DNA from: Trichodesmium erythraeum IMS101
Lineage (GTDB): Bacteria; Cyanobacteriota; Cyanobacteriia; Cyanobacteriales; Microcoleaceae
DNA: 32,000 nt
Assembly (NCBI RefSeq): GCF_000014265.1
Contig: NC_008312.1
Span: 7,590,001 to 7,622,000, forward strand
Direction of reading: 5' to 3'
Shown here: positions 1-19,929 of the stretch, in pieces
Layout of the letters: every line of letters begins with the position of its first letter
How positions within the stretch are numbered: the stretch's first letter is position 1
Notes under the pieces: generated by a model
What the model saw: the letters and a program-made list of their open reading frames with translations, nothing else
The model's database searches: none
Told to the model about the DNA's origin: nothing
Program-made: the position numbers and the translations under genes

Positions 1-924
1 AAAGGCTAATCCTACATTATTCCATTCGGAGATTCCCGTATCTCCAATTACAGACCAATCATCAGTATTGGGGTTGTAGAACATCAAATCTTTATTAGAA
101 CCCAACCCATATACTCCTTCGTTACCAAAGGCTAATCCATGTAGTGAACTGAAAGGGGAGCTTAGGTTAGAAATTGGCTCTCCTGTATTGGGGTTGATCC
201 TATAGAAATCATTACCATTTGTTCCATAGAGAATATTTTTGGAACTATCGTATGCTAGTCCGTCATAGTTAGAAGGATAGTCATCACTAATTTGATTAGC
301 AACGCTACCATCAGCATTGATTTTGGATAAGTGCCAATTACCACCATAGATGAAATTTGAAGATTCGCTGGGAGCTAAACCATCCCATTGAAAATTTGGA
401 TCAGTGGTCAAAAGACGAGTAGCATTACCTGTTTTTCTATTGAGAGTGTATAAATCTTCAGTATTGCCTGAGCTAAAGTACAATTTACCTTTAGCACCTC
501 CTATCTGACGACCAATAGTTTCAATAGTCAAGTCATATTTTCCAGGAGTTCCTGGACTACCGCTACCTTCTTGCTCAAAGTTATAATTCGTGTTACCATC
601 ACCGCTAATACCAACATAGAAAGTCCCCGCCTGGTTAGCTTGGTAAATAATATAGTTCGGGTCAACAGGATCATATAACTCCAAGAGCTTCGAGTTATCA
701 AACATTTTTAATTCTGCATCACCAATATTATTGTCGTTTTCGTCTAACAAATCAATAGTTTTTGGTAACCGGAGGCGATCGCCTACACCTAAGTCGAACT
801 TAAATAAATCAACATCTTTCTCAGGGTCAACATTAGGGTTATCTCCAATTTCACCAGAATAGGTAAAAGTACCATCATCACGAAGAGTTAGTCCAGTATG
901 AATAGCACGAATAGGAAATGTCAT
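1..924 (-). CDS. hypothetical protein, 3' end outside window; N-terminal pre-peptidase C-terminal (PPC)-like domain followed by beta-propeller-like repeats
   Basis: Minus-strand frame is open for all 308 codons from ATG (922-924) to the window edge. It is absent from the ORF track because no stop lies in the window. My translation: MTFPIRAIHTGLTLRDDGTFTYSGEIGDNPNVDPEKDVDLFKFDLGVGDRLRLPKTIDLL...AGTFYVGISGDG...GKYDLTIETIG (PPC-like pattern). Recurring propeller-like motifs follow (DLYTLNRKTGNAT, NILYGTNGNDFYRINPNTGEP, DLMFYNPNTDDW). Domain names are from memory of family patterns. Confidence 0.6.
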   Translation of the reverse strand, partial: MTFPIRAIHTGLTLRDDGTFTYSGEIGDNPNVDPEKDVDLFKFDLGVGDRLRLPKTIDLLDENDNNIGDAELKMFDNSKLLELYDPVDPNYIIYQANQAGTFYVGISGDGNTNYNFEQEGSGSPGTPGKYDLTIETIGRQIGGAKGKLYFSSGNTEDLYTLNRKTGNATRLLTTDPNFQWDGLAPSESSNFIYGGNWHLSKINADGSVANQISDDYPSNYDGLAYDSSKNILYGTNGNDFYRINPNTGEPISNLSSPFSSLHGLAFGNEGVYGLGSNKDLMFYNPNTDDWSVIGDTGISEWNNVGLAF

Positions 925-1516
925 TAGGTTCTTTTATCATTATGAATAATCCTATAAATTCTACAACTACCAATATCGGGGTTACTATCTAATTAAGCAT
1001 CGAGGCTCATCTTCAAGGTCACCAAACCCTTTGAGCAACTGATAAAAGCATGAAAATGAAAAACTTGCTGTCCTCAAATAAATACATTTTTTTACCAGTC
1101 AATATTAGTACCACTGACATCAAAAACTTTACTTTTGACTACACTGATTTTAAATATATTATATCAGACAATGTCTTGTTTTTATAACAAGTTAAATAAA
1201 ATTAAAGATTTTTGACATCCTCTCTTGAGTTTTTTTTCGATATCGATATTACACCTACCTCCTCTTGCTTCCTTCTTGCGAAAGAATAGAGTACAGTTAT
1301 ACCTCCTTCCTTGTACATTTTTTGTCTCAGAATGCCCACATAAGATTTATTAACTCTATTATATTATTATATTATAATACTATGTACTTAAAACAACAAC
1401 CCAAATTTATAAATTTATTGATCAAATGGGGAAAGTTTTGGTCCTTATGTAAAAATTATGTTGCAACTCAACAGGGTAGGGACTTGTAGACTTTTACATC
1501 ACATTACAACCACCTG

Positions 1517-1558
1517 ATCAGTTTTCAATTATCAGTTTTCAGTTACCAGTTTTTAGTT
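1517..1558. repeat. 3 x 14-bp tandem repeat (atcagttttcaatt / atcagttttcagtt / accagtttttagtt), STRR-like
   Basis: Read directly. It lies in the ~750-bp AT-rich spacer between the divergent PPC-propeller gene and the Trypco2-like gene. A related heptamer run tgataac/taataac/tgataac occurs at 12317-12337. Confidence 0.6.
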
Positions 1559-1677
1559 TTTGATAACCCATTTATTGGTGACTCAAAGTTGAAAATAATT
1601 ATTATATGTTAGTTTTTGATAATTTGATATGACATCCTAAAATAAATACCAGTTAAACTTACCAATAATAATTACAT

Positions 1678-1992
1678 ATGGCCACGAGATTAATTGAGTT
1701 AGAAGGTGGTATTTTGGTTGAGGCAGAAGTTTCCGAAAATGAAGCCCAGCCTATTTCTAGTAATGAAATTAAAGCAGTTAAATCTACTTTTGCTAGGGTT
1801 AAACCTATATTAATTAGTATTAGCCGCCCTATTGCTGAAGCTTGGCAAGAAATTAATCAAGATATGGAAGTAGAACACGCTGAAGTTGAAGTAGGTTTTA
1901 ATTTTGAGGGGGAGGGTAATGTTGATGTTGCGAAAGCCAAGACTGGTAAAAATTTAAAGGTTAAGTTAGTTCTCAAACCTAAAAAAATCTGA
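1678..1992 (+). CDS. Trypco2-like (trypsin-co-occurring domain 2 / CU044_2847-family-like) small protein
   Basis: 104-aa ORF. Its stop TGA (1990-1992) lies 2 nt before the ATG (1995) of a protease-like frame, an operon-type junction. It has an N-terminal strand LIELEGGILVEAEV, an acidic/helical middle and a C-terminal AEVEVGFNFEGEGNVDVAKAKTGKNLKVKLVLKP. This matches the family pattern as I remember it. No HMM search was run. Confidence 0.7.
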   Translation: MATRLIELEGGILVEAEVSENEAQPISSNEIKAVKSTFARVKPILISISRPIAEAWQEINQDMEVEHAEVEVGFNFEGEGNVDVAKAKTGKNLKVKLVLKPKKI

Positions 1993-1994
1993 GA

Positions 1995-2452
1995 ATGAGT
2001 AACTTAGAAGAATTTATTGTTTCAATTACTAGCGCTAGTGCCAATGCTCTCAAGGCAGGTGTTATTAGAACTGGAACTACATTTTATCGGGAGCATCATT
2101 ATGTTTATTTGCTTACCTGGGCTCATATTGTTGAGGATGTCGGTAGCAAAGAAAATGTTTGAGTCAGTAATATTGCGGTAGCAGTTTTTGCAATAGGAGA
2201 TCTTAAGATTTTTTTTACTTCCTTCCTGGGAAGGGGTGGCGGTGGGTTAGCAGTTTTGGGGTTAGAAAAGCTGAATATCAAAACTTTTCTCCCTCACAAG
2301 TTTATCGGTAGCAGTCAACCTCAAGTTTCCGACAGCAGGTTATTTTCTCTATGGTGAGGAGCAAAAAAATCTTGCTTTCAACTGTTGATGGAACTTTAGG
2401 AAAAAAGGGTTTTCTCTGTCAAAATGATCAAAGAGTGGTAGTAAAAGTCTGA
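1995..2452 (+). pseudogene. decayed tandem duplicate of the 5' ~400 nt of the downstream trypsin-like protease gene
   Basis: From ATG 1995: MSNLEEFIVSITSASANALKAGVIRTGTTFYREHHYVYLLTWAHIVEDVGSKENV, then TGA at 2160-2162. The intact gene reads MSNLEKSIVLITSASDNSRKADVIGTGFAFYRKDNYTYLLTCAHVVEDVGGKENV. DNA similarity continues (gcaataggagat, ttagcagttttgggg, cttttctccctcacaagtttatc, ttttctctatggtgaggag, ggaactttaggaaaaaag) with an insertion, frameshifts and more stops. The 22-mer tctgagaatgagtaacttagaa occurs at 1988-2009 and again at 2448-2469, a 460-bp duplication period. Confidence 0.8.
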
Positions 2453-2454
2453 GA

Positions 2455-3471
2455 ATGAGTAACTTAGAAAAATCTATTGTTTTAATTACTAGTGCTAGTG
2501 ACAACTCTCGCAAGGCAGATGTTATTGGCACAGGATTTGCTTTTTATCGAAAGGATAATTATACTTATTTGCTAACCTGCGCCCATGTTGTTGAGGATGT
2601 AGGCGGTAAAGAAAATGTTTTAGTCAATGATATTCCGACAGAGGTTTTAGCAATAGGAGATGTGAAGAATTTTGATTTAGCAGTTTTGGGGGTGAAAAAC
2701 CTGAAGGTGGAACTTTTCTCCCTCACAAGTTTATCCGCGTCAGAAAATGTCAAGTTTTGGATAGCAGGTCATTTTCTCTATGGTGAGGAGAAAAAAATCT
2801 TGCTGGAAACTGTTGAGGGAACTTTAGGAAAAAAGCGTTTTGTTCGTCAAAATAATCAAACAGTGGCAGCTTGGAAATTGTTAATTAATGAGGGCGATCG
2901 CCTTCGTAAAGGTTATAGTGGGGCACCTGTTGTGGACTTGAAAGCTGACCGTGTGTTCGGTATCACTACAGATATGGAGAAAGATGGAAGGGAGGGGTTA
3001 GCTATTTCCGTAGAAGCTATGGAAAAAATTTGGCCTCAAGTGCCTCCTGTTATTTCTGATGTTATTTATGACTATGATAAATTAAAAAAATTACTTAGTG
3101 AGGGAAAATGGCAAGAAGCAGATGAAGAAACAGCTTGTTGTATGTTGAAAGTTGCAGGGCGAGAGGAGGAAGGTTGGCTAAGAGTAGAAGATATAGAAAA
3201 GTTTCCTTGTAGTGACCTCCGCACAATTGACCAACTTTGGGTAAAATATAGCGACGGTAAGTTTGGCTTTTCTGTGCAAAAGAAAATTTACCAGAGTTTG
3301 GGTGGTACGAAAGAGTATGACGAGAAAGTATATTGTTCCTTTGGGGATAAAGTCGGATGGCGTCAAGGAAGAAAATGGTTGTCTGAATTACAATTAACTT
3401 TTAGCTTAGATACGCATTTTGTGGAGCACCTACCTCCTAAGGTGGTCGGGGTACCTAGGCTACCTGGTTAG
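2455..3471 (+). CDS. trypsin-like (S1 fold) serine protease fused to a C-terminal GUN4 domain
   Basis: 338-aa ORF. Triad motifs occur in order: LLTCAHVV (His), NFDLAVL (Asp), KGYSGAPVV (Ser). The C-terminal half reads as GUN4: LSEGKWQEADEETACCMLKVAGREEEGWLRVEDIEKFPCSDLRTIDQLWVKYSDGKFGFSVQKKIY. It ends at TAG 3469-3471, after which the same frame stays open to 3570. Confidence 0.85.
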   Translation: MSNLEKSIVLITSASDNSRKADVIGTGFAFYRKDNYTYLLTCAHVVEDVGGKENVLVNDIPTEVLAIGDVKNFDLAVLGVKNLKVELFSLTSLSASENVKFWIAGHFLYGEEKKILLETVEGTLGKKRFVRQNNQTVAAWKLLINEGDRLRKGYSGAPVVDLKADRVFGITTDMEKDGREGLAISVEAMEKIWPQVPPVISDVIYDYDKLKKLLSEGKWQEADEETACCMLKVAGREEEGWLRVEDIEKFPCSDLRTIDQLWVKYSDGKFGFSVQKKIYQSLGGTKEYDEKVYCSFGDKVGWRQGRKWLSELQLTFSLDTHFVEHLPPKVVGVPRLPG

Positions 3472-3947
3472 GGGGAACCTTACATTATTGTGCGTTCGTG
3501 GCAGTATGGCGACTGGCGTCGACTGGCGCGAGGAGGCGCGAGTTCTCTTCTCTCCCGCAGAGACTTGTAGAGCTTAACATATAAGCGTTTCAGCCGTAAA
3601 GACAAATAACTTTAGCGAACCCAATTTTAGGAGTTTCCTTGAATTCAGCATTTTGATACCTGGCACCAACAGGCAGGCATCCCCCGAATGTCAAAAGTCC
3701 ATAAAAAAATCATCAAAAAACAGCATTGCCGCCTCTGGGTCATAACATTTGGCCAGAACAAACTGCCTCGTAACCTCCATTACCTCAGACTCCACAGGTT
3801 CCCATGTAGCCCAGGGAAGCCACATTTGTCCTGGAGACTGCTTATTTTCACGTTTTTTCTGCAAGACCTTCGGTAAAAACTTACTTCCTGATCAATTACC
3901 TCTTTTTTTTGTTTATACCTATACTTATACCTTTGGTAAAGCCCCCA

Positions 3948-4133
3948 TTAATTCTTAGCACATTTATCTAAAGTATTACCAAAGTACAAAAAAGCCGGAT
4001 GCCACTTGATCAAACCATCATCAGTCAAGCGGTCATAAGTGCCATAGTTCGAGAAATTATAAAAGAAACCCTGCTGCATATTAGCCGCTTTAGGGTTAGC
4101 GTGAATATATCGCAGAGAAATTATTCGTACAGT
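3948..4133 (-). pseudogene. possible C-terminal remnant of a REP-associated tyrosine transposase (RAYT / IS200-like Y1 transposase)
   Basis: The minus-strand frame is open from 4133 to 3948 and is closed upstream by TAA (4136-4134). It translates TVRIISLRYIHANPKAANMQQGFFYNFSNYGTYDRLTDDGLIKWHPAFLYFGNTLDKCAKN. LRYIHANPKAANM...FYNFSNY resembles the catalytic-tyrosine region of RAYTs as I recall it (RYIhlNPVRAnmV...Y.WSSY). The HUH-containing N-terminal part is absent. Motif-level evidence only. Confidence 0.35.
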
Positions 4134-4184
4134 TTACCCAGAGAAATGTCGCGATCGCGCGCTGAAAATATTGAAGTCATTTTT

Positions 4185-6368
4185 GAGGAAGCATTTTTGG
4201 GAGTTATTTTTGACGAGGTTTGAATTTTTCTCCATCAACATTTGACTAGATAATTTTCGTGATGTTGGGTTTTGTGACTTTTTTTGACTATAGAGTTTTA
4301 ATGATGTTGGGTTTGGTGACTAGAGAATTTTAGTGATGTTGGGTTTGGTGACTAGAGAATTTTAGTGATGTTGGGTTTGGCTAACTCAACCCCACCTACA
4401 AAATTGCGGAAGCGTTTTTGGGAATTATTTCTGATGAGGTTTGAATATTTCTCTGTCAACATTTGACTAGATAATTTTCGTGATGTTGGGTTTGGTAAAC
4501 TAAACCCCACCTACAAAATTGCGGAAGCGTTTTTGGAAATTATTTCTGATGAGGTTTGAATATTTCTCTGTCAACATTTGACTAGATAATTTTCGTGATG
4601 TTGGGTTTGGCTAACTCAACCCCACCTACAAAATTGCGGAAGCGTTTTTGGGAATTATTTCTGATGAGGTTTGAATATTTCTCTGTCAACATTTGACTAG
4701 ATAATTTTCGTGATGTTGGGTTTGGCTAACTCAACCCCACCTACAAAATTGCGGAAGCGTTTTTGGGAATTATTTCTGATGAGGTTTGAATATTTCTCTG
4801 TCAACATTTGACTAGATAATTTTCGTGATGTTGGGTTTGGTAAACTAAACCCCACCTACAAAATTGCGGAAGCGTTTTTGGGAATTATTTCTGATGAGGT
4901 TTGAATATTTCTCTGTCAACATTTGACTAGATAATTTTCGTGATGTTGGGTTTGGTAAACTAAACCCCACCTACAAAATTGCGGAAGCGTTTTTGGGAAT
5001 TATTTCTGATGAGGTTTGAATATTTCTCTGTCAACATTTGACTAGATAATTTTCGTGATGTTGGGTTTGGTCAACTAAACCCCACCTACAAAATTGCGGA
5101 AGCGTTTTTGGGAATTATTTCTGATGAGGTTTGAATATTTCTCTGTCAACATTTGACTAGATAATTTTCGTGATGTTGGGTTTGGTAAACTAAACCCCAC
5201 CTACAAAATTGCGGAAGCGTTTTTGGGAATTATTTCTGATGAGGTTTGAATATTTCTCTGTCAACATTTGACTAGATAATTTTCGTGATGTTGGGTTTGG
5301 CTAACTCAACCCCACCTACAAAATTGCGGAAGCGTTTTTGGGAATTATTTCTGATGAGGTTTGAATATTTCTCTGTCAACATTTGACTAGATAATTTTAG
5401 TGATGTTGGGTTTGGTCAACTCAACCCCACCTACAAAATTGCGGAAGCGTTTTTAGGAATTATTTCTGATGAGGTTTGAATATTTCTCTGTCAACATTTG
5501 ACTAGATAATTTTCGTGATGTTGGGTTTGGCTAACTCAACCCCACCTACAAAATTGCGGAAGCGTTTTTAGGAATTATTTCTGATGAGGTTTGAATATTT
5601 CTCTGTCAACATTTGACTAGATAATTTTCGTGATGTTGGGTTTGGTAAACTAAACCCCACCTACAAAATTGCGGAAGCGTTTTTGGGAATTATTTCTGAT
5701 GAGGTTTGAATATTTCTCTGTCAACATTTGACTAGATAATTTTCGTGATGTTGGGTTTGGTAAACTAAACCCCACCTACAAAATTGCGGAAGCGTTTTTA
5801 GGAATTATTTCTGATGAGGTTTGAATATTTCTCTGTCAACATTTGACTAGATAATTTTCGTGATGTTGGGTTTGGCTAACTCAACCCCACCTACAAAATT
5901 GCGGAAGCGTTTTTGGGAATTATTTCTGATGAGGTTTGAATATTTCTCTGTCAACATTTGACTAGATAATTTTCGTGATGTTGGGTTTGGCTAACTCAAC
6001 CCCACCTACAAAATTGCGGAAGCGTTTTTGGGAATTATTTCTGATGAGGTTTGAATATTTCTCTGTCAACATTTGACTAGATAATTTTCGTGATGTTGGG
6101 TTTGGTCAACTAAACCCCACCTACAAAATTGCGGAAGCGTTTTTGGGAATTATTTCTGATGAGGTTTGAATATTTCTCTGTCAACATTTGACTAGATAAT
6201 TTTAGTGATGTTGGGTTTGGCTAACTCAACCCCACCTACAAAATTGCGGAAGCGTTTTTGGGAATTATTTCTGATGAGGTTTGAATATTTCTCTGTCAAC
6301 ATTTGACTAGAGAATTTTCGTGATGTTGGGTTTGGTAAACTAAACCCCACCTACAAATTTGCGGAAGT
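4185..6368. repeat. non-coding tandem array: 17 regular 115-bp units (4406-6360), a diverged seed copy (4185-4405) and a terminal 8-nt stub
   Basis: Unit starts (gcggaagcg) are at 4406, 4521, 4636, 4751 ... 6246, an exact 115-bp period. The unit is gcggaagcgtttttgggaattatttctgatgaggtttgaatatttctctgtcaacatttgactagataattttcgtgatgttgggtttggNNaactNaaccccacctacaaaatt. Every unit has stops in all six frames. The seed contains three 30-32-bp sub-repeats (tagag(a)attttaRtgatgttgggtttggtgac, 4291-4380). Each unit has the palindrome GTCAAcatTTGAC (first at 4455-4467) and the hairpin GTTGGGTT-N10-AACCCCAC (first at 4485-4510). Confidence 0.95.
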
Positions 6369-7821
6369 AAATTAAAAGACTACGCAAAGTTACAAATTTC
6401 TTCTTATGTTATCTAGGCTCCGCTGCCAAAACTCAGCCAAACTGTACTGGAAATATTTCAACTAGAAATTAATTATTATATTCCTAAAAATGATTCTTGG
6501 TTTGCCAAAATGAACTTAGAATTAACTTGATATAATGGTGTATTGAAAATATTAATAGTACTTATTTTTGTTGGTGCGATACTGATAGAAATGTCATCAA
6601 AAAAAAGAAAATAAAGAGTAATAGTAAAAATATTGAAATATCTAAAAAATACACTCAAGTTAAACAGGAGTTATTATTAGTAATTAAAATGGGATTAAAA
6701 CTAAAATTGGGATATAAATCTGTGGAAAGTTTATCAGCTATTTCAAAAATAGATAGTCTGAAATTGTTAGAGAGAATAGTATTCCAAATTCCCCAAATTT
6801 CTCAAAATATGAGTTGCAAAAACTATATAATCAATAGTTAAAAAACATTGAATATTAGCCATTTGTTTACTGATATGATGAGATAACTTAAATATCTAAT
6901 ATAGTAAAAGTGATACATTTAATCAACCTGTTTCCTGATTACTAGAAATTCTACCTGAAGACTGAAAGATCAAAGCCGCTTTAAGGCAGGAAGTAAGAGG
7001 CATTATCCTAAAGTAATATAACTTAGATGAGTTCGAGCTTTTTTTTAACAAGTCCAGTGATTTTAAATAAGATTTAAGATTGTTAAATCTAGGTTTAAGG
7101 GATTTTCACCCAAAAAAAGCAATTGCTTGAGTACTATAAACTATCAAAGGATTGAAATATAAAGCTTACAGCTTTTTTTTTGGAAAAAAGTACTAGCTTT
7201 CTAGTGGCTTAAGCTCAGAGGTTATCATATTTTATGTAAGCAAATTGCAAAACTTTGATTATAACACAAAAAATCTGGAAATTTACAATCATTAATCAGG
7301 TTGGAAATTAAGGTTTAGTCATATAAAAAATGCAAAATTAAATTTTAAACAACTGATATCACAAAATCAGATATAGTTATAGTAGAATGATATAAATTAT
7401 TTTCACTTAATATCAAAAATAGGATGATTTAGGCGGCCATTTGTCGAGACTTACAAAAACTTGAATTAAGCTATAAAAAAAACGTTGTACAGTAGCTAGG
7501 GAGCGATACCAAGAGTGCAAAAATTAAGAGGAGAATACTAGAAAAATGTGAAAGATATAAATCCAGAAAACTTAGTATTTTTTAGATTAAATAAGTGTAA
7601 TACTAGGTAAAAAAAGAACTTATGAAAATTTGGAGGGACTAGGATACATGAAATAAAGCTATTTTATCCAGGCTAAAAAAATAAACACATTAATTGGTAT
7701 TGGTACAGAAATGTTGAATGCGGTAATAAAAGTTTACATATAAGCTTAACCTAGTCTATAGGTAACATTTTCATCTTATCCAATTCAAAAATAATAACGT
7801 ATATAGAATAGAGAAATAAAA

Positions 7822-8313
7822 ATGCCAGCACCCAACCACCTTAGTCAAAAACAACGTCAAAATTTACTGAAAATTTTTAGAGAAAGTGAAAGTCCTTTAA
7901 TTAGGAACAGAGTAATGATTTTGTTATTGATGAATGACGGAAAGACTTATGAAGAAATCAGTGATTTTTTACAAATATCTTATCCTACAGTAGCATATTG
8001 GGCTATGCAAGCAGACCCAGATCAACCGGAAAGTTTTACAGATGGAAGGTCCAAAGGAAATTATAGAAAAGCTACAGAACAATATATCAATTTGCTATTA
8101 AAAATAGTTGATAATAAACCATCGAAATACGGGTATCAATTTGGTAGTTGGACAGCAGAAAAATTAGTAAATCACCTGGAAAAAGAAACTGGCATTAAGT
8201 TGAGTAGTTCTCAAGTAAGGAGGATTTTAAAACAAAAAAAAGCAGATTTATTATCTGAGCAAAACAAAGCCAAGAATAGCGACAAAAATCAAAAAGAAAA
8301 AAAAATGACTTGA
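7822..8313 (+). CDS. IS630-family-like transposase N-terminal HTH/winged-helix fragment (no DDE domain)
   Basis: 163-aa ORF with the typical two-HTH N-terminus: RNRVMILLLMNDGKTYEEISDFLQISYPTVAYW and FGSWTAEKLVNHLEKETGIKLSSSQVRRILKQKK. A low-complexity K-rich tail follows. An A8 run lies at 8234-8241, where similarity ends. No catalytic domain follows in any frame. Confidence 0.55.
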   Translation: MPAPNHLSQKQRQNLLKIFRESESPLIRNRVMILLLMNDGKTYEEISDFLQISYPTVAYWAMQADPDQPESFTDGRSKGNYRKATEQYINLLLKIVDNKPSKYGYQFGSWTAEKLVNHLEKETGIKLSSSQVRRILKQKKADLLSEQNKAKNSDKNQKEKKMT

Positions 8314-8421
8314 GTTTTAATAAGAAAAAGCATTCCTTTTATTTTAATTGTTTGACCAGAGATTTTTTTTAGTCATTCCAACTTAATTATCCAAGATTTT
8401 TATATTACTCTTGAGCACTAA

Positions 8422-8534
8422 TATAGCAGTAAGCTCTGGCATATTTACAGTCCCAACCCTCTAAAGACAGTCCAAAGCCTCTAAAGTAAGTCCTTATAAC
8501 AAAAATTGTAAATACACCAGCGCACTTTGCTATA
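8422..8534. mobile_element. ~113-bp hairpin-forming MITE-like element, copy A
   Basis: tatagcagtaagctctggcatatttacag...ttgtaaatacaccagcgcactttgctata has imperfect ~29-nt inverted arms with termini TATAGCA/TGCTATA. It contains an internal direct duplication (ccctctaaagacagtcc / gcctctaaagtaagtcc). A second, clearly homologous copy lies at 16603-16714. Confidence 0.6.
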
Positions 8535-8975
8535 TCATCTATCCTTGCTATTTACAGTAGATGAGCTATTAAATGACGTACAGGATAAATAATAAAAACA
8601 TTGTAGTGAAAATTTTGCCCCTGGTTATTGTACCTAACCGGCAGCAACAAACCCCTGTATTTTTAAGGGGCAATAATATATTTTTCCTCAGTTATCTAGT
8701 CATTCCATTAATCTTTGTGTTACAAACTAACTATTTATTAACATAATTTTAAATGATAACTTCTACATTTATTTAAATATATTCATGTTTAAACGAGGAA
8801 AATAAACTATATTTAGTATTTGAGTTTAGGTTATAAATTTTGTGTTTTAGGGGATCTAGAGAACTTAGTAAAGAGCAGCAATATCGAGATAGTCTTAAGG
8901 GTTAAGACTATATAAACACCCTTGGGTAATTTCTGTCATTATATTGTGAACTACCCAACCTTAAAGGTACAGTAA

Positions 8976-10523
8976 CTAATTACCTGGAGTTGATATTACT
9001 AATCTTTCCAACATTTCTCTGTGCTTCGATACAGGAGCAAGAGTATTTGCTGCTATCATCCCACTTACTGCCACTGCAGGTAAACCAATACCAGGAAAAG
9101 TAGAGTCACCACAACATAATAACCCCGGTAATGCTATAGGTCCAGGGAATAACCCCTCCCCAGCACGAATTGCCGGACCATAAGACCCCCGATGACGACG
9201 AAGAAAACGTTCGTGAGTTATGGGAGTTCCTACTAATTTAACTTCACAACGGGAACGAATATCAGGTATTATTCTCTCTAACCCTCGCCACATTACCTCA
9301 GCTCTTTCCTGCTTTTGTTGTGCATATTCTTGACTCTTTCTATCCATACCCTGCCATAGTTGATATGGTTCATTTCCTGGAGTATAAACATGAATAACGT
9401 GCTTTTTTGGGGGTGCAAGAGTAGAGTCTATTAAGGATGGAATAGATACTAATACAACATTTTGGGGCGCATCTATTTGATCCCAATGATTGACAATAAT
9501 ATGATGACAGGATAGATCTGGTTTGATATCTGTAGCATCAATACCTAAATGTAAGTGCATAAAACTATTACATTCTGGTGTTGCTTGTCGTTCTTCCCGC
9601 CAAGATGTTGAAACAGCATCCTCTGAAAGTAATTTCAAAGTATCCCAGACAGAAGCATTTGAAACTACTGCTTGCTTTGCCCGAATTTCCTCTCCATTCT
9701 GCAACAATACCCCAACAGCACGCCCACCTCTAATTACTATCTCTTCCACATGAGCATTTAACATTAGTTGACCGCCATGACGTTTTAACCCCCTCACTAA
9801 AGCATCAACTATTGCTCCACTACCACCTATAGGATAGTCAAGTACAACTCCCGGTCGATACCATTCAGCAAACATAAATGCAACTTCAGCAGCACTGGTA
9901 CCATTTGCTGGCAAGCCTGAAAGTAGGAAGCAAAGCAAATCAAACCAATTTCGGATAAAAGGGTCTGTGACAACCTCTTCAAGAATTTCGGAAAACGCTC
10001 CCGTTAACTTAGCAATGTTAAAAGTGTGCTTTGCCATAGTAGGTAGAAATTGCCCCATTGTCATTATTGCTCCTAGGTCAAAACGGACAGAAGCAGGAGG
10101 AAGAGCGATCGCTGCTTCTGCTAGTGGAGCCATAATTTTTTGTAGTTTACGCCACTCTGCTACAGCACCTTCACCTCTCAGCTTTTGGAGAACATCACAA
10201 AATTGGTCTGCACCCACTGATGTATTAAAGTTACCTTCTGGTAAACAACAACCCCAAGTCTTATAAGTTACACAGGGTACTGACTCACCGATAGCATCCA
10301 AAACTTGTGCTAGTGGGTTAGTAGAAGGGCGATAGGAAAGACCAGAATGTAAAGATGGTCCTGAGTCAAATTTAAATCCCTGACGCTCAAAACTATGAGC
10401 AGCACCTCCAGCAATAGAATGACTTTCGCAAACTACGACATCAAAACCATAGTGCGCTAGTAAAGCAGCACAGCTTAAACCACCAATTCCACTACCAATT
10501 ACAATTACATCTGTTTGAGACAT
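8976..10523 (-). CDS. phytoene-desaturase-family NAD(P)/FAD-dependent oxidoreductase (carotenoid-isomerase-like)
   Basis: 515-aa ORF. N-terminal dinucleotide-binding motif DVIVIGSGIGGLSCAALLAHYGFDVVVCESHSIAGGAAHSF. The length and the C-terminal GDSTFPGIGLPAVAVSG motif are typical of the CrtI/CrtISO superfamily. Exact substrate is unknown. Confidence 0.8.
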   Translation of the reverse strand: MSQTDVIVIGSGIGGLSCAALLAHYGFDVVVCESHSIAGGAAHSFERQGFKFDSGPSLHSGLSYRPSTNPLAQVLDAIGESVPCVTYKTWGCCLPEGNFNTSVGADQFCDVLQKLRGEGAVAEWRKLQKIMAPLAEAAIALPPASVRFDLGAIMTMGQFLPTMAKHTFNIAKLTGAFSEILEEVVTDPFIRNWFDLLCFLLSGLPANGTSAAEVAFMFAEWYRPGVVLDYPIGGSGAIVDALVRGLKRHGGQLMLNAHVEEIVIRGGRAVGVLLQNGEEIRAKQAVVSNASVWDTLKLLSEDAVSTSWREERQATPECNSFMHLHLGIDATDIKPDLSCHHIIVNHWDQIDAPQNVVLVSIPSLIDSTLAPPKKHVIHVYTPGNEPYQLWQGMDRKSQEYAQQKQERAEVMWRGLERIIPDIRSRCEVKLVGTPITHERFLRRHRGSYGPAIRAGEGLFPGPIALPGLLCCGDSTFPGIGLPAVAVSGMIAANTLAPVSKHREMLERLVISTPGN

Positions 10524-10849
10524 TTTATTTGGTTAATTATTTTATTTGGTTAATTATTTAATTTAGCGTTTTATTGATCAGGATAACAGCAAAAGTCTAA
10601 AATTTGTAGAAAATGTGCTAAACCTTAGTCCAATAATATAGACGGGTGGGTTAGTAATCTTGGATAGTTAACTTTCTACAGTTGAAAACTAGTATTTTTG
10701 TACACAGTATGGTAGAGTAGTAATAAAAATAACACTCCACCTCAAGTGTCAGAATTAATCCAACAGTGGAAAAGGTTGTATTCAAAATCTCTATCCATGA
10801 GCACTGATGTTTTTCAATTTTGATGACAGAATGTTCCACCAACAGCATT

Positions 10850-12076
10850 TTAAAATAAAGGTAAAGGTTGATTGAAATCATAACCAGGAAACACCCGTGC
10901 TATTTGCGATTTACTGAAACCAAAGTGCTGTTGAAAAATACTAGCGATCGGATTTCGGAAATCTGTCGTTACAGTTAAATCACGTTTTTGGAATAATTCT
11001 GATTCATCTAAACCAGGCCATTCTCCATAAACCTGACCCCCACGCAAGCCACCACCTAAGATCCACATCACATTACCATGACCATGATCGGTGCCACCAT
11101 TACCATTTTCTTTAACTGTGCGACCAAACTCTGATATTACTAAAATCACGGTATTTGAGTAAAGTGAACCCAATTCCTGAACTAGAGTAGCTAAACCTTC
11201 CCCAAGAGGTTTTAATCGTCTTGCTAACACACCTTGACTGTTGCCTTGGTTAACGTGAGTATCCCAACTACCCAGAGCCAAAAACCCTAATTGCGTTCTG
11301 GAATCACCAACCATAATTTGAGCCAAATTTTTAGCATCACTTGCAAAGCCTGTTGGCGGTGGTGCGCCACCCGAAGATTCTACCATTTCTTTCTCCAAGT
11401 CAGCTAATAATAAGTCCCTTGCTTGACGACCTTCTTGGTAAACTATACTCAGTTCATCATTGCCGTTATAAAGGCGATCGAATGCTGCATAAACTTTGGG
11501 GCGATCTATTGGCAAACTGCGGGTAGACTTTTTACCTGTGGGGAGACTGGCAACTGGCATTTCACCCATGAGAATGCGAGGTGGTGTATTGCCTAAGTTT
11601 ACTGCTTGAGTAGGTCTATCTTTTGGGATGTTTGCTAACAGACGATTCATCCATCCATCAAGTATTTTTTTGTTACCTGGTATGCCTGTTTCCATATAAT
11701 ATTGAGCATCAAAATGAGAGCGAGTATCGTTGTTTAAACCACAAGCGTGAATAAAAGCTAAACTACGATTTTGCCAGAAAGGCATGATGCTTCCTAAAGC
11801 TGGATGTAAACCAAATTGACCGTCTAAATTTATTGCTCCATTTTCTTCTCCTGGGGCGGGAATGGCTATTTTGGGTCGCACATCATAATAAGCGTCTTCT
11901 TGATAGGGAATAACTACATTTAACCCATCGACTCCTCCTCGGAGAAAAACAACTATTAATTTTTGACGATTATTGGTTTGAGCTAATCCTTTTGCCACCC
12001 AAGCATGACTACCAATAGAGATAATTCCTGAAGCAGATAATAAACTAGCTAATTGTAAAAATTTTCTTCTTTTCAT
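10850..12076 (-). CDS. DUF1501 family protein (sulfatase-like fold), Tat-type signal
   Basis: 408-aa ORF. N-terminus MKRRKFLQLASLLSASG carries a twin-arginine-type motif. LIVVFLRGGVDGLNVVIPY and SEFGRTVKENGNGGTDHGHGN are characteristic of DUF1501. It lies downstream of a DUF1800 gene, the usual pairing. Confidence 0.85.
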   Translation of the reverse strand: MKRRKFLQLASLLSASGIISIGSHAWVAKGLAQTNNRQKLIVVFLRGGVDGLNVVIPYQEDAYYDVRPKIAIPAPGEENGAINLDGQFGLHPALGSIMPFWQNRSLAFIHACGLNNDTRSHFDAQYYMETGIPGNKKILDGWMNRLLANIPKDRPTQAVNLGNTPPRILMGEMPVASLPTGKKSTRSLPIDRPKVYAAFDRLYNGNDELSIVYQEGRQARDLLLADLEKEMVESSGGAPPPTGFASDAKNLAQIMVGDSRTQLGFLALGSWDTHVNQGNSQGVLARRLKPLGEGLATLVQELGSLYSNTVILVISEFGRTVKENGNGGTDHGHGNVMWILGGGLRGGQVYGEWPGLDESELFQKRDLTVTTDFRNPIASIFQQHFGFSKSQIARVFPGYDFNQPLPLF

Positions 12077-12383
12077 ACTTCCTCCAAAATATTAAATATT
12101 GTCAAGTTTATTTTCAAATTTTAGGTATTTTTTGCTTCTAAAAATAGCGGTATCTATAGTTAATTTTTAATTTTTAATATCATCACAACTGGAAGATAAT
12201 TCTCCTTGTAATTAAAAGTTGAATCTTGAGCTAAAAATCAGGTCTCAAGCCTCCCATTTCAAGAGGATAAAAAAATTAACTTCACTATTTCAAGCTATAT
12301 CTTCAGTCATAGGTATTGATAACTAATAACTGATAACTAAAATGACAGATTAATCAGTAGAAAAATTGACCATAACTTTTAAT

Positions 12384-13871
12384 TTATTTTTTCATCATTT
12401 CTGGACTACCTAAAATTAATGCTGCCTGTAAATTATCTGGACTATTGTTAATAACGGCTTGAGTTTGGGTAGAAAATCTATTTCCTAAAGTTGCCCTAAG
12501 TTGCTGATAATTTACCAGTTTAGGCTTTCCTTGATTCAACTGACCACGGGATATAATTGTAGCAAAACTAATCCGACGCATTATAGCATCAGGATTTAAC
12601 CATGCTTCTTGAGTGTTTTTATAGCCGTCAGGAGTCTTACAGCCATAAAGGTTCATTCCTAATTGACCTAAAATTCTTTTAATTCTGCCGAATCTTGGGT
12701 TTTCGGTACCCGTTGATCTAGCAGCAGAAATAATATATTGATAAGGGTTTTTAAACTTACTATCATAATATTTTTCATTCCAAAACTCAGAACTATTAAA
12801 TAAGGTTTCTAATACATAACGAATATTGCCATTAGTTTCTTGAAATCTTTGATCTAGTTTATTAACTAAGCTACTGGGAGGTACATCGGCAACAAAATAT
12901 TGAGCTAATTTATAACTAATAAAATGGGCAGTAGATGGATGTTTTGCTAAAATATCTAAAGCCTTTTCTCCCTCTTCTACTCCACCACCTTTAATGGGTA
13001 CTCCTAGGAATATTTTGTCACTATTATCATGGCGATTTTGATAAAACTTAAACCCACTACCATCTTCACTAAGGTACTTTATTCCCCAACCTGTAAAAAT
13101 TCTTGCTAAAGTTATTATCTCTTGTTGTGTATAACCTCCATTAATTCCCATACTATGAAGCTCCATAAGCTCACGGGCATAGTTTTCATTTAAGCCTTTA
13201 AATTTGCCACGGGCACCTTTACTACCAGGGGCAGTATTTAGCCAATTATCTAAATAAAATAGCATTGCTGGATGATGGGCTGTTGCTCCTAATAAATTAC
13301 GAAAATTACCAAGTGCATAAGGTCGAATAGCGTCTCTTTCGTAAGTCCCTACCCAGAGGCGAGTTAAGTAACCTTTACCTACAGAAATATTGAAGTGGTT
13401 AAACCAAAAATCTACCATTACTTCTTGTAGTTGTTTGTTGCTCAATATTCCTTGAAGTAAACGTGCATTTTCTGATTCCCGTAAAATTTTTCTGATATTT
13501 TTATTTCTTATTTCTATTCGTTGTTTTTGAGTCAAATTTTTATCTCTTTTTTTAACTGGAGAGACAGTTTTTTGATATAATTCTGTTGGTGATAAGTAGA
13601 AATTGGTTAACTTAGCCATTTTTTGTGTAAGTTGAGGAGATTCTCTAATAGTTTCTGGTCTCAGTTGAGATTTAATATAATTATCAATTCCTATAGACTC
13701 AACTCGTTCTATATCTCCTGGCCTAGGGCCCAAAGTCAGACGATTTAAAACATGGATTGTTTTGGTAGTAATAGATTGACTATAGGCGTAGCTAGGACTT
13801 GATATACCTAGGCAGATAATTAAGCTTAATAGCAAAGATATAATCCAGTATCTAAAGGTTTTTGGTATCAA
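12384..13871 (-). CDS. DUF1800 family protein, signal peptide
   Basis: 495-aa ORF with a hydrophobic N-terminus (YWIISLLLSLIICLGISSPSYAYS). Motifs HVLNRLTLGPRPGD, MVDFWFNHFN and NENYARELMELHSMG are typical of DUF1800. It pairs with DUF1501 downstream on the same strand. Confidence 0.85.
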   Translation of the reverse strand: MIPKTFRYWIISLLLSLIICLGISSPSYAYSQSITTKTIHVLNRLTLGPRPGDIERVESIGIDNYIKSQLRPETIRESPQLTQKMAKLTNFYLSPTELYQKTVSPVKKRDKNLTQKQRIEIRNKNIRKILRESENARLLQGILSNKQLQEVMVDFWFNHFNISVGKGYLTRLWVGTYERDAIRPYALGNFRNLLGATAHHPAMLFYLDNWLNTAPGSKGARGKFKGLNENYARELMELHSMGINGGYTQQEIITLARIFTGWGIKYLSEDGSGFKFYQNRHDNSDKIFLGVPIKGGGVEEGEKALDILAKHPSTAHFISYKLAQYFVADVPPSSLVNKLDQRFQETNGNIRYVLETLFNSSEFWNEKYYDSKFKNPYQYIISAARSTGTENPRFGRIKRILGQLGMNLYGCKTPDGYKNTQEAWLNPDAIMRRISFATIISRGQLNQGKPKLVNYQQLRATLGNRFSTQTQAVINNSPDNLQAALILGSPEMMKK

Positions 13872-14595
13872 CTATTCCTCCTGAAATACTCTAATTTTTT
13901 TGACTTGTATTATTTAACTTTTATATATTTTATAGCAGTTTTAATTCTAATTTTTTTTGCTTTTAGTCAACATTATTTACAATACAGCATATTTAAAGGA
14001 TATAAATTACAAATATTAACAATAAAATGTTTGTTATGTCGGCTTTTTACCTGCGTATGTCTGCCTCACCAAGGTTGAATTTACTATATCATTCACAAAA
14101 CAATTAAGTAATACCAATTCACCTTAGGGATGTCAGAAATAGTTTCCAATTTCAAATGTAAAATAATAATTTGCTTAAGCTATTGTTTAATCAAAATTTT
14201 TAGTCAATTAAATTGAGCCTTGTAACTTATTTTTTTTTTAATTCTGACTTTAGTCAAACAGTATAAGTTGGCGTTAAAATCTGTCGCTATATAACAAAAT
14301 GTCAATACTACTCAAGTCAACTTTTTAAATAAGCTTGGACTTAGTATACAAATCTTAATATAGTTCAGTTTTTTCATACCTATCTAACTTATAACTCCAA
14401 TATTTTAATTTTACCACTACAATATTTATTACAGTATTTCTAAAAAAGTTTTGAGCCTATAAAATCTTAATGTATGGCTTTTGACTCTGCCCTTTGGTCG
14501 GAATAAAAATGTTAGTTGACTTGCATAAAATTATATAACTCATTTATTTGTGCCATAACCTATGTCTAGCTTTGCCTCAATCTAATAAACTCTAA

Positions 14596-16332
14596 TTAGG
14601 GAGCTTTCCAAATATTAATCTTCCGGTCCCAACCACCACTAACGATGATTTGCCCATTAGGACTAATTGCTACGACACTAATATAACTGTTGTGTCCCCT
14701 TAAACTTCCTTTTAATTTACCTGTACTCAGTTCCCAAAATTTGATTGTTTTATCCCAACTACCACTAATTAAAGTTTTTCCATCAGGAGTAATAACTATT
14801 GACCAAACTCCATCTAAATGTTCTTTTAAATTATGGATTAATTTACCTGTCTGTAAGTTCCAAATATTAATTGTGCCATTACTACTACTACTAGCTAAGA
14901 TTTGACTATCAGGACTAAAAACTACAGACAAAATTGAAACAGAATTAGTATTAATAGTACGAACAAGTTGTCCTGTCTGCAAATTCCACAATTTAATCTG
15001 ATTATCCTTGCTACCACTAGCTAAAAATTGCCCATCTGGACTAATGGCGATCCCATTGACTATCTCAGAATGTCCGGCTATTGTTTGCAGCAACTCCCCG
15101 CTAGCCAAATTCCAAATTTTAATAGTCCCATCCCAACTCCCACTAGCAAAAATCTTACTATTGGGAGCGATCGCAACTCCATCTACCACATCAGTATGTC
15201 CTGTGAGAGTTTGCACCAAGCTAATATCATTGATATTTTTATTTTTAGGTAGTTTCCATATTTTAATAGTTTTGTCATCACTTCCACTAATAACAAATTG
15301 TTCATCAGGAGTTACTGCAACTGAGTTTACTGACTCTGGATGTGCTTTCCAGATAGCTATAATTTCTCTATTCTCGATATCCCAAACTGAAATCATACCA
15401 TTACTGCTTCCCATAACGATGTAAGCATTTAGAACAACTATTGAATTAACTATTCCACTAATTTCATCAGTAATTGCTTTTGCGAGAGTAAAGTCCAGGA
15501 CAGTTTCAGTATCGTCCTCTCTGGTAGCAGTATTTGTAGCAACAGGATTTGTTGTTTCTGTTGGACTTGCTGGAGCTTGGATATTTTCAGGTATTTGAGA
15601 AACAATGGGCAATGAAACTCCTTGTCGCCAGTCCCAAAAAGTATTAATTTCAATCCCTCCTGAGACAATGACATCAGAGTTTTCTTGCAATTTGACAATA
15701 CCATTAATAGCTACTAAGCGACCTTCTTCATTAAGTACAGGTCCACCACTCATCCCCGCTCTGACTAAATTATCATATAGTAAACTATAACCAGCAACAG
15801 GTTGCTGACGACCTTTCACCACTCCTGGGGTGCTCAGAAAAATTCGTTGCTTGAGATTGCTACCAGAACGAGGCCATCCCCCCACAAATACCTTAGTTCC
15901 AGAAACTAATTTAGTGGAGTCTCCTGTTTCGGCAATGGGGTAGTTTTGAGAACTGCTAAATGGTATGATGGCTAAGTCTATATTTGGCAATTGCTTGATT
16001 AAGGTATAGTAAACAGGGTGCATTTTTCCATCAGGTGTACGTACTTGGTAATCTCCTACTGTATTAACAACGTGCCAGTTGGTGAGTACATAATATGTGT
16101 CTCCTTGTTTTTCAACAATTACTCCTGAGCCACTTCTGTTTCTTCCGTCAATTCTAACTGTAATTTCGGCTGCAATTTTATTAATTTCTGATGCTGTTGA
16201 TCCCAGAGCAATTTTTTGTGTTATTAGTGAATTAGTGATGGTAATAGCAACAATAAAATTCCTGATATTGGTTGTGTTTATATTGAGTAAGTTGCTAATA
16301 ATAATTATGACAATTGTTTTCTTTAAATTCAT
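14596..16332 (-). CDS. membrane-anchored or exported trypsin-like serine protease fused to a 7-bladed WD40 propeller
   Basis: 578-aa ORF. Hydrophobic N-terminus (TIVIIIISNLL, FIVAITITNSLI). S1 triad motifs VLTNWHVV, NIDLAII, AGMSGGPVL. P/T-rich linker (QAPASPTETTNPVATNTA). Seven WD repeats end in VWDI, IWKL, IWNL, LWNL, IWNL, FWEL, IWKA. Confidence 0.9.
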   Translation of the reverse strand: MNLKKTIVIIIISNLLNINTTNIRNFIVAITITNSLITQKIALGSTASEINKIAAEITVRIDGRNRSGSGVIVEKQGDTYYVLTNWHVVNTVGDYQVRTPDGKMHPVYYTLIKQLPNIDLAIIPFSSSQNYPIAETGDSTKLVSGTKVFVGGWPRSGSNLKQRIFLSTPGVVKGRQQPVAGYSLLYDNLVRAGMSGGPVLNEEGRLVAINGIVKLQENSDVIVSGGIEINTFWDWRQGVSLPIVSQIPENIQAPASPTETTNPVATNTATREDDTETVLDFTLAKAITDEISGIVNSIVVLNAYIVMGSSNGMISVWDIENREIIAIWKAHPESVNSVAVTPDEQFVISGSDDKTIKIWKLPKNKNINDISLVQTLTGHTDVVDGVAIAPNSKIFASGSWDGTIKIWNLASGELLQTIAGHSEIVNGIAISPDGQFLASGSKDNQIKLWNLQTGQLVRTINTNSVSILSVVFSPDSQILASSSSNGTINIWNLQTGKLIHNLKEHLDGVWSIVITPDGKTLISGSWDKTIKFWELSTGKLKGSLRGHNSYISVVAISPNGQIIVSGGWDRKINIWKAP

Positions 16333-16602
16333 TTTTTTTTAGTCATACAGCAATCCTATTTTTACTTTTTCCAAAATCTTGGCGCTTTCGGGAAATAGGG
16401 GATAGGTTTGGAAGAAATTGGCAAAAGTTTTGCAGTTTATTTCTTTTTAAATTTTCACAATCATTTGATAGGATTGCTATGGGTAATTTTTTAAGCTAGA
16501 TGTTTAATCCTATATTTTCAAATCCAAAATATAGCTCAAATGCTATCTATACATAATTAATTCCTCCTCAAATATTCAGGATAAAGGATATGAGAACTAT
16601 TC

Positions 16603-16714
16603 TATCGCAGTGAGTCCTGGCATATTTACAGTTCAAACCCTCTAAAGATACTCCAAACCCTTTACAGTAAGTCTTTATTAAAAAGCTTTAAATATACCAG
16701 ATAACTTCGCTATA
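16603..16714. mobile_element. ~112-bp hairpin-forming MITE-like element, copy B
   Basis: tatcgcagtgagtcctggcatatttacagttcaaaccctctaaagatactccaaaccctttacagtaagtc...aaatataccagataacttcgctata aligns along its full length with 8422-8534. It lies in the divergent intergenic region between the trypsin-WD40 gene and the GGDEF/EAL gene. Confidence 0.6.
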
Positions 16715-17097
16715 AATTGTTTTAGGGAGTACATAAGGACTTTCTATACACAGTTCCTAGTTCGTAGCAGGGCAAGCTCATCTAAAATTTTATTGACAAA
16801 TCAATATTTTTGTCACCTGCTTGCAATACAAGCTTTTCAAGGAATTATAAATATCACAGAATTTTCATATTATCGGTTTTCGCGGTTTAACAATTGGAAT
16901 GTATTTTCGTCACTAAATTAATCCCAAAACCTTTCAGAGCAATAGGTTCAGAAAATATACTATTTGTTAATGATTGTTAAGATGAGCTGACCCTATAGCT
17001 CGTAGTAATTTGGGAAACAGGAAGTAAAAAAAACAAAAATTTTCTAATTGTAATATAATAGTATAAATAAAGTGCTAAATCTTATAAATTCTTAACA

Positions 17098-19413: not shown

Positions 19414-19929
19414 GTAATCTCTTTTCTTCATAATCAGGACTTAGGTAAAAGCAATATATGTTGTAGGATTTAATAATTATAATTTTTCTTTATTTGGACT
19501 GCATATGTGTGACCAAGTTTTGTTAGAGAGTTGATTTTGTTAGAGAATTGAATTGCTCTACCAAGTCTTAGAAATAGCCTTTCTGCAAAAATATTTTACC
19601 TGGAGTATTTGCTTGGTGAATATTAGTAATAATTAACATTCGATTATGTAGCAGCTATTTCCCCACTATAATAATGTCCTGCTCACTTCATACATACTAC
19701 AATACATCCTTTTGTATTTATCGGGTTATTCTTTTATCTTCAAAATAGCAGCTCCCGTATCAATATATTTTCCTTATTGCTTATTATTTGCCCGGAGAAC
19801 TATAAATTAAAAAACTGCTTAGAACCAGGTCAATAAATTTGTAAAAAAACAAGTTTCATGTCTTATCTTGCCTAGTTCTAGCAAATAGTTACCAACCCAC
19901 TAAATCCTTTGTAATGACTTAATAATAAG

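Follow-up and report, generated by a model that had tools for sequence, protein, structure and literature searches.

Mycobacterial interspersed repetitive units (MIRU-VNTRs; VNTR, variable-number tandem repeat) and staphylococcal interspersed repeat units (SIRUs) are intergenic minisatellites of bacteria. Here we describe a comparable array in the cyanobacterium Trichodesmium erythraeum IMS101, which consists of 17 copies of a 115-bp unit and lies in a window of 32,000 nucleotides (32 kb) of contig NC_008312.1, to which all positions below refer. As in the MIRU-VNTRs and SIRUs, near-identical units in the range of tens to about 150 bp stand head to tail between genes, and copy number or sub-repeats differ by strain, which was seen here directly in the sub-repeats of a diverged first copy (the seed) and was deduced for the main array from broken assemblies. 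Growth by slippage or unequal recombination and the lack of a dedicated function would be further points of likeness. Unlike the MIRUs, which are dispersed over many loci, the 115-bp unit was seen at one locus, and its 17 copies are at the long end. We consider the chances about even that the array is a lineage-restricted non-coding minisatellite of VNTR-like behavior, which is neutral and has grown by unequal recombination.

Another tandem array is known from the same genome. It is composed of 7 units of 736-973 bp at genome positions 103,000-110,200 of IMS101, each repeat having one mapped transcription start site (TSS) for a ~260-nt transcript, and it accounted for 44.7% of the primary reads in a study that mapped 6,080 TSS in T. 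erythraeum (Pfreundt et al., 2014; PMC4143802). Like the 115-bp array, it is non-coding, has diverged edges around similar interior units (>96% identical there) and shows no similarity to other genomes. However, its units are 8 times longer and include the duplicated 3' end of a gene, whereas the 115-bp unit has no coding-derived part and is known here from its sequence alone. The NsiR1 array of heterocystous cyanobacteria (PMC4030482) is also similar, in that about a dozen direct repeats, each of the size of a small RNA (sRNA) gene, lie in an intergenic region. Unlike NsiR1, the 115-bp unit has no Rfam match, no DIF motif (TCCGGA, 0 occurrences in 4101-6400) and no intrinsic terminator per unit, and Trichodesmium, unlike the hosts of NsiR1, forms no heterocysts.

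The centromere sopC of the F plasmid is composed of 12 x 43 bp beside sopAB. It shares with iterons and with our array the tandem direct repeats that each have an internal inverted repeat, but the units described here are of 115 bp and chromosomal, and no partition or replication genes are present within the 32 kb. ToxI, the antitoxin of type III toxin-antitoxin systems, has 2-5.5 repeats, each of about 36 nt, which directly precede the toxin gene. Although it is a non-coding tandem repeat array too, we rejected this candidate, as the unit here is of 115 nt and the 1.45 kb downstream of the array (6369-7821) has no + strand open reading frame (ORF) of at least 60 amino acids (aa), a minus-strand 60-aa ORF at 6476-6658 being outside this test.

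Anatomy of the 115-bp array

Tandem Repeats Finder detected a period of 115 bp in 17.6 copies at 4349-6367 (97% matches, 0% indels, score 3779). When the register is cut at 4406, the array resolves into 17 units in phase, head to tail on the + strand (4406-6360), which represent 9 distinct sequences with a mean pairwise identity of 97.7% and a minimum of 94.8%. They are preceded by the seed (4185-4405, + strand), a diverged first unit copy that begins with GAGGAAGCATTTTTGGGAG and ends in a hairpin of allele A (see below), and are closed by a partial 18th unit, GCGGAAGT (6361-6368, + strand). Part of the seed is itself duplicated again, namely the portion that starts at the right palindrome half and extends to the hairpin 5' arm, which yields a 42-bp sub-repeat and a 32-bp sub-repeat in three copies (Tandem Repeats Finder rows 4241-4321 and 4285-4380). 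The two edges of the array share a GGAAG microhomology, contained in GAGGAAGC at 4185 and in GCGGAAGT at 6361. The original prediction, which a model had made from the letters of the window without database searches, had described the 17 units, the re-duplicated seed and the abrupt end at GCGGAAGT, and all of these were borne out by Tandem Repeats Finder and the unit alignment.

Only 8 of the 115 unit positions are variable (15, 17, 67, 74, 91, 92, 97 and 113), the other 107 being invariant. Positions 91, 92 and 97 determine four alleles of the hairpin loop, A to D, and a motif scan recovered exactly the order that had been predicted along the array, namely A in the seed followed by B A A B B C B A D A B B A A C A B. 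The G67 variant (tagaGaat) is confined to the last unit and the seed, in agreement with the prediction; in IMS101, private variants are found at the edges only. In the three units with allele C or D, the loop change creates TTGACC and with it the only promoter-like match in the units that scores 9 of 12, TTGACC-17-AATTAT on the minus strand (5046-5074, 5391-5419 and 6081-6109).

The predicted non-coding nature of the array was confirmed, since stops occur in all frames and the longest stop-to-stop run in any frame of the homogeneous array is 30-47 codons. Exact look-up of two ORFs inside the array gave no record, and the six-frame translation of three units had no match among 5.8 billion protein clusters, so that the unit is not a recognizable gene fragment. 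A CRISPR array, which the original prediction had already excluded, was likewise rejected: the entire 115 bp repeats with 8 variable positions only and without unique spacers, and no cas domains are found in the window.

Three structures and an AT-rich box recur in each unit, for which coordinates are given here in unit 4 (4751-4865) as an example. The first is a 5+3+5 palindrome, GTCAACATTTGAC (GTCAA-CAT-TTGAC, 4800-4812), found in 17 exact copies at 115-bp spacing, that is, perfect and invariant in all 17 units, while the version in the seed, ATCAACATTTGAC, is conserved at 12 of 13 positions. It is followed by the AT-rich box TAGATAAT (4813-4820), which is -10-like on either strand but has no + strand -35 partner at 16-18 bp.

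The second structure is a polymorphic hairpin, GTTGGGTTTGG-NNAACTN-AACCCCAC (4830-4855, + strand), whose motif occurs 18 times against 0 expected. As first given, GTTGGGTT-N10-AACCCCAC, the hairpin holds a T-C mismatch; instead, RNAfold gives two alternative perfect 8-bp registers, namely the stem GGGUUUGG/CUAAACCC with a UAAA loop for allele B, and the stem GUUGGGUU/AACUCAAC with a UGGCU loop for allele A. The register is set by position 97, where alleles with A use one stem and those with C the other. Thus, the C/A site does not add or remove one stem pair, as had been proposed, but switches the register, which leaves each of the four loop alleles with a perfect 8-bp stem. Both stems include G-U pairs, which RNA of the + strand alone can form.

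The third structure is a stem at the unit junction, AAAATTGC-GGAA-GCGTTTTT (4745-4764, + strand), which was recognized by folding and from the sequence; the junction AAAATTGCGGAAGCGTTTTT is present 17 times. This stem is weak, with the central pairs G-C, C-G and a U-G wobble in addition to A-U pairs, a GGAA loop and a U5 run. Only on the + strand does it resemble a terminator, and it falls below the criteria of the terminator scan. That scan found 1 terminator-like site in the region against 2.9 expected, none of them within any unit, and the promoter scan found 15 promoter-like sites against 15.6 expected, none of them on the + strand inside units. The best -35/-10 score in a unit is 8-9 of 12, and no + strand pair reaches 9 of 12.

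Searches for sequences related to the unit gave chance matches at most. In Rfam, no family was found at the gathering threshold, and three snoRNA chance matches only at E≤10. The 18-mer core of the palindrome had 4 unrelated single matches among 185,579 species genomes, a scan that did not return IMS101 itself, so that solo copies may exist elsewhere in its genome. The hairpin had 2 unrelated, eukaryotic-looking matches in the JGI metagenomes, three scans of viral contigs gave single chance matches extending over no more than 26 nt, and BLASTN against plasmids and phages gave nothing. No other part of the window was found to resemble the unit, not even the remnant of an IS630-family insertion sequence. 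Compared by eye, none of the known cyanobacterial consensus sequences for NtcA (GTA-N8-TAC), HetR, LexA, Fur, RpaB (HLR1) and the DnaA box fits the palindrome or the hairpin. A full-text literature search for the sequences themselves yielded unrelated primer matches only. Thus, as originally stated, no described function was found for the element, either in Rfam or in the literature.

Distribution and variation among Trichodesmium lineages

We compared the locus in 24 Trichodesmium contigs from isolates, metagenome-assembled genomes (MAGs) and ocean metagenomes, which were found by exact-protein look-ups. The same seed is present in all T. erythraeum-clade contigs that reach the region, and the same last unit in those that cross the array, their flanks being 96.7-99.9% identical to IMS101. 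Five contigs stop inside the seed, four scaffolds have N gaps inside the array, and others either reach 1.3 units before they stop or span the locus with the seed and a single unit (e.g. L015). Since such breaks and gaps are expected of a multi-copy repeat in short-read assembly, the array is genuine and not an artefact. The repeat is therefore real, and 17 is its count in the IMS101 assembly as deposited.

The seed is polymorphic among strains. By strain, 171 or 203 bp separate its start from the 3' arm of the first hairpin, a difference of one 32-bp sub-repeat, and variants of the seed sub-repeats swap places between strains. Several strains have GTTGGTTTTGG in the hairpin arm of the seed, a G-to-T change that breaks one stem pair. 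Variation in the copy number of the main array is deduced from short-read contigs that are broken, collapsed or N-gapped.

The interior of the array was predicted to be homogenized, and strain MAG_R01 (contig L025), which differs from IMS101 by ~1% around the array, bears this out. Its seed hairpin is of allele D, and its two readable units each combine allele D with T113, so that its own variants are present wherever those positions can be read, and the other unit positions are those of IMS101. Because the units of MAG_R01 share their own variants and the edge units of IMS101 are diverged, the array undergoes concerted evolution. As a separate observation, the divergence between IMS101 and MAG_R01 is ~1% over 1-16332 and then 5-7% over 16333-22101; this jump near 16333 suggests a recombination breakpoint and mosaic ancestry.

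The array is restricted to one lineage. In a sister lineage (L030), which is probably the T. thiebautii clade, the upstream protease is 85% identical in amino acids, the flanking DNA is 87-91% identical and the order from the protease to the amine oxidase is kept, but a 5.15-kb segment holding the array (3846-8998; BLAST breakpoints 3845 and 8999) has no counterpart. It is replaced by ~0.9 kb of unrelated DNA (L030 8306-9196) with an antitoxin-like ORF and a PIN-like pseudogene. No unit-like sequence was found in any contig fetched from the sister lineage. The replacement region of L030 also contains a local duplication of the region corresponding to window 3544-3683.

Origin of the array and competing explanations

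We infer a recombinational origin and neutrality of the minisatellite from the features listed below. A ~115-bp intergenic stretch framed by the GGAAG microhomology would first have been duplicated by illegitimate recombination or slippage. This may have left two founder copies, an allele-A copy that is now inside the seed and an allele-B terminal copy, a state such as that in collapsed contigs like L015. The 115 bp that the founders had in common would then have served as the homology through which sister or polyploid chromosome copies engaged in unequal crossing-over and gene conversion, by which the array could have expanded to about 17 units in IMS101, its interior kept homogeneous by concerted evolution. 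Unequal exchange and conversion would also produce the aperiodic mixture of A and B and the derived alleles C and D, while the edge copies, the seed and the last unit, would evade homogenization and drift. In this scheme, palindrome, hairpin and junction stem presumably go back to the ancestral intergenic sequence and were copied along with it instead of being designed parts, and the array would have no dedicated cellular function, though it may be passively transcribed.

Several features argue for such a minisatellite. The distribution is restricted, as the sister lineage lacks the whole 3846-8998 segment, and the context is one of pseudogene and insertion sequence debris with low GC and no ORF of at least 80 aa between 3471 and 7822. 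The nested 32- and 42-bp sub-repeats of the seed, whose number varies by strain, look like footprints of slippage, and the GGAAG microhomology frames the array. Moreover, the interior is homogenized, the edges are diverged, and alleles have spread in a strain-specific manner in MAG_R01. No functional signature was found in Rfam, in the promoter and terminator scans, in the RNA fold z-scores (only -0.8 to -1.8) or in A-tract phasing, and neither the rest of the window nor plasmids, phages or viral contigs hold another copy of the unit, which has no protein match either. A genome that is about 40% non-coding in a repeat-rich genus also fits: only about 60% of the T. erythraeum genome is protein-coding (PMC4143802), and the genus Trichodesmium has been described as repeat-rich (PMC9950141). 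The original prediction had regarded the lack of a conserved neighborhood as a sign of neutral slippage, and this applies in part, as the element does not extend beyond one species-level clade and is VNTR-like in its behavior.

Other observations weigh against a neutral minisatellite. Direct repeats are usually lost fast in bacteria; the seed, at least one unit and signs of multiple copies are found in every T. erythraeum-clade assembly examined, and selection could be behind this persistence. The 8-bp stem kept in four alleles, with G-U pairs valid on the + strand only, weakly suggests a constraint on an RNA. A different tandem array, that of 7 units, is the source of the most abundant T. erythraeum RNA (PMC4143802). 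In addition, the relatives are 0.3-1% diverged near the array (MAG_R01 ~1%), which gives no power to a neutrality test based on substitution rates, and a genome-wide lack of solo copies is not proven by an 18-mer scan that did not return IMS101 itself.

The main alternative, unlikely but serious and already among the candidates of the original prediction, is an amplified sRNA gene cluster, in which each unit would be a mini transcription unit on the + strand. In this model, TAGATAAT would serve as the -10 element, the palindrome just upstream as an operator, and transcription would start near GUGAUG. The product would be a ~55-nt RNA with the polymorphic 8-bp hairpin and the weak AAAAUUGC-GGAA-GCGUUUUU stem, the U-run of which would act as a terminator, and dosage would be high owing to the 17 copies, in the manner of NsiR1 in Nostoc or of the 7x973-bp array of the same genome. 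Indeed, the order of the elements (AT box, hairpin, then stem and U5) suits a minimal sRNA gene. The + strand is also the strand that folds better (-25 against -18 kcal/mol for the other strand by RNAfold), the G-U pairs of both stems are valid on this strand only, and all four loop alleles keep the 8-bp stem. There is precedent as well, since a tandem array with one TSS per repeat yields the top RNA of T. erythraeum and 27% of its TSS give non-coding RNAs (ncRNAs) (PMC4143802), and NsiR1 is encoded in tandem direct repeats.

On the other hand, no + strand -35/-10 pair reaches 9 of 12, promoter-like sites are at chance level, the terminator scan is blank in the units, and the junction stem has only three central pairs, one of them a wobble. 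The RNA fold z-scores (-1.0 to -1.8) are inside the shuffle range, there is neither an Rfam match nor the DIF motif, and no covariation is available. Moreover, only the box and the 5' arm are duplicated in the seed, a portion that would be of no use to an sRNA; the seed is also free to vary among strains, a stem-breaking change included, and the whole element is missing from the sister lineage. More doubtful still is the specific proposal of ~17 recently amplified, species-specific tandem sRNA genes or a processed repeat RNA, from which a ~55-nt RNA with a four-allele, register-switching hairpin would be made.

It is improbable that the array is a protein-binding or architectural one, in which a dimeric protein would occupy the 13-bp palindrome once per unit for nucleation, titration or a partition-like role, as in sopC and the iterons. 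The palindrome is perfect in 17 of 17 units and nearly so in the seed, but it is no more invariant than most of the unit, and its 18-mer has only the 4 single chance matches elsewhere in the species-genome collection. The original prediction had placed all palindromes on one side of the helix. The arithmetic of this claim holds, as 115 bp make 10.95 turns at 10.5 bp per turn and the sites would be roughly in phase, but the phase drifts by ~17 degrees per unit, or near a full turn over the array, and AA/TT dinucleotides show no 10.45-bp periodicity in the unit (power 1.3 against a shuffle mean of 24), so that only the arithmetic speaks for a common face. A T-tract signal at 11.5 bp was marginal (uncorrected 0.004 among ~24 tests). 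A centromere- or iteron-like array, another of the functions first considered, finds no par, rep or plausible partner gene in the 32 kb, where the only nearby helix-turn-helix (HTH) protein is a truncated IS630 orfA product, and the site is chromosomal and in a segment that the sister lineage lacks.

A derivative of a mobile element, such as a REPIN/RAYT system, a tandem of miniature inverted-repeat transposable elements (MITEs) or a phage or plasmid remnant amplified by a transposase, is very improbable. The IS630 orfA remnant 1.45 kb downstream and the lineage-specific nature of the whole segment are in its favor, but no terminal inverted repeats span the unit, and neither the unit and that remnant nor the unit and plasmids, phages or viral contigs show any likeness. 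Likewise, the proposals of a dispersed hairpin of the REP type (repetitive extragenic palindrome) and of REPIN/RAYT-driven amplification did not hold, because no solo, dispersed or inverted-pair copy was found in the window or in the fetched Trichodesmium loci, no RAYT (Y1 transposase) gene is present in the window, and the 18-mer search gave no relevant match. Also very improbable is an array length resulting from mis-assembly of a shorter repeat, for although the 17 copies are known from the assembly only and several contigs of short reads span the locus with the seed and one unit, independent assemblies from many samples are broken within the seed or array, or are N-gapped at this place, and the aperiodic pattern of 9 distinct sequences in 17 units is unlike an artefactual collapse or expansion.

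Thus, the array appears to be a further bacterial minisatellite in a long-published genome, the more exotic candidates being unsupported. If neutral, it is a clean example of how the ~40% non-coding fraction of Trichodesmium grows by local tandem amplification and concerted evolution, and a potential high-resolution VNTR marker for field strains of T. erythraeum. Furthermore, short-read MAGs of this nitrogen fixer, which is of global importance, always break at this spot. If the units are transcribed, they would form a very recently born, lineage-specific multi-copy sRNA family and would bear on why T. erythraeum retains so much non-coding DNA and so many ncRNAs. Should the sRNA explanation be true, the locus would be a second highly repeated ncRNA locus beside the 7x973-bp array, with an sRNA family born and expanded in one species-level clade.

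Genomic setting and other repeats of the window

The proteins that flank the array are exact matches to ABG53887 (the GUN4-like protein) and ABG53891 of T. erythraeum IMS101, the longest contig that carries them being of 7,750,108 bp, and the locus is therefore chromosomal. Upstream are a Trypco1 protein (1678-1992, by domain scan) and, as the neighbor of the array, a protease of 338 aa with Trypsin_2 and GUN4 domains (2455-3471, + strand). The protease of IMS101 is short at its C-terminus, as those of other T. erythraeum-clade contigs are of 379-381 aa (L012, L015 and L025 among the contigs compared). The 3' end of this gene is unstable: in MAG_R01, a ~616-bp deletion (window 3375-3988) takes away the gene end. 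Between the two genes, a 55-aa ORF (1995-2162) repeats the N-terminus of the protease encoded at 2455-2620 (MSNLEEFIVSITSAS... versus MSNLEKSIVLITSAS...). It is a partial tandem duplication of the 5' end of the protease gene, and gene calling recognizes the ORF in every related contig.

The surroundings of the array are composed of pseudogene scraps and the IS630 orfA remnant at 27-31% GC. Just upstream of the seed, a 43-aa minus-strand ORF (3948-4079) has a sub-threshold Pfam match to CTD7 of ABC-three-component systems (E=0.008) and is possibly a pseudogene scrap of a conflict-system effector. The HIP1 octamer GCGATCGC lies within cgcgatcgcgcgc at 4151-4158, 26 bp upstream of the seed, and is the sole one in 4101-6400.

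Downstream, the IS630-family transposase gene orfA (7822-8313, + strand) is a mobile-element remnant within the same lineage-specific segment, which encodes the HTH only and is followed by no DDE part. Its homology search gave hundreds of paralogues, and it is therefore useless as a synteny anchor. A second stand-alone IS630-type orfA of this kind, with the HTH and without a DDE part, is located at 26499-26936. The copy at 7822-8313 is kept at 163 aa in all T. erythraeum-clade contigs. These stand-alone genes could be domesticated or merely decayed.

The amine-oxidase gene follows at 8976-10523 on the minus strand, and the remaining proteins of the window have DUF1501/DUF1800, trypsin-WD40, GGDEF-EAL, AAA-WD40, COP23 and NACHT-HEAT domains. 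Pfam scans of 20 ORFs of the 32-kb window detected no par, rep, cas or Y1-transposase domains, and a tRNA/tmRNA search found none.

Other repeats were noticed in and near the window. The heptamer TCAGTTT occurs about 6 times at 1517-1560, upstream of the Trypco1 gene, and recalls the short tandemly repeated repetitive (STRR) sequences of cyanobacteria. A second long tandem repeat at 27626-29117 (102 bp x 14.6, 88% match) is coding: its 34-aa HEAT repeats belong to an NNH2-NACHT-HEAT protein of 1345 aa (27415-31452, minus strand). Finally, upstream of the window region, two contigs (L001 1743-4084 and L002 403-2137) hold a gene for a ~2,200-aa protein with a 438-444-bp tandem repeat in 4-5 copies, at which short-read contigs break as well.

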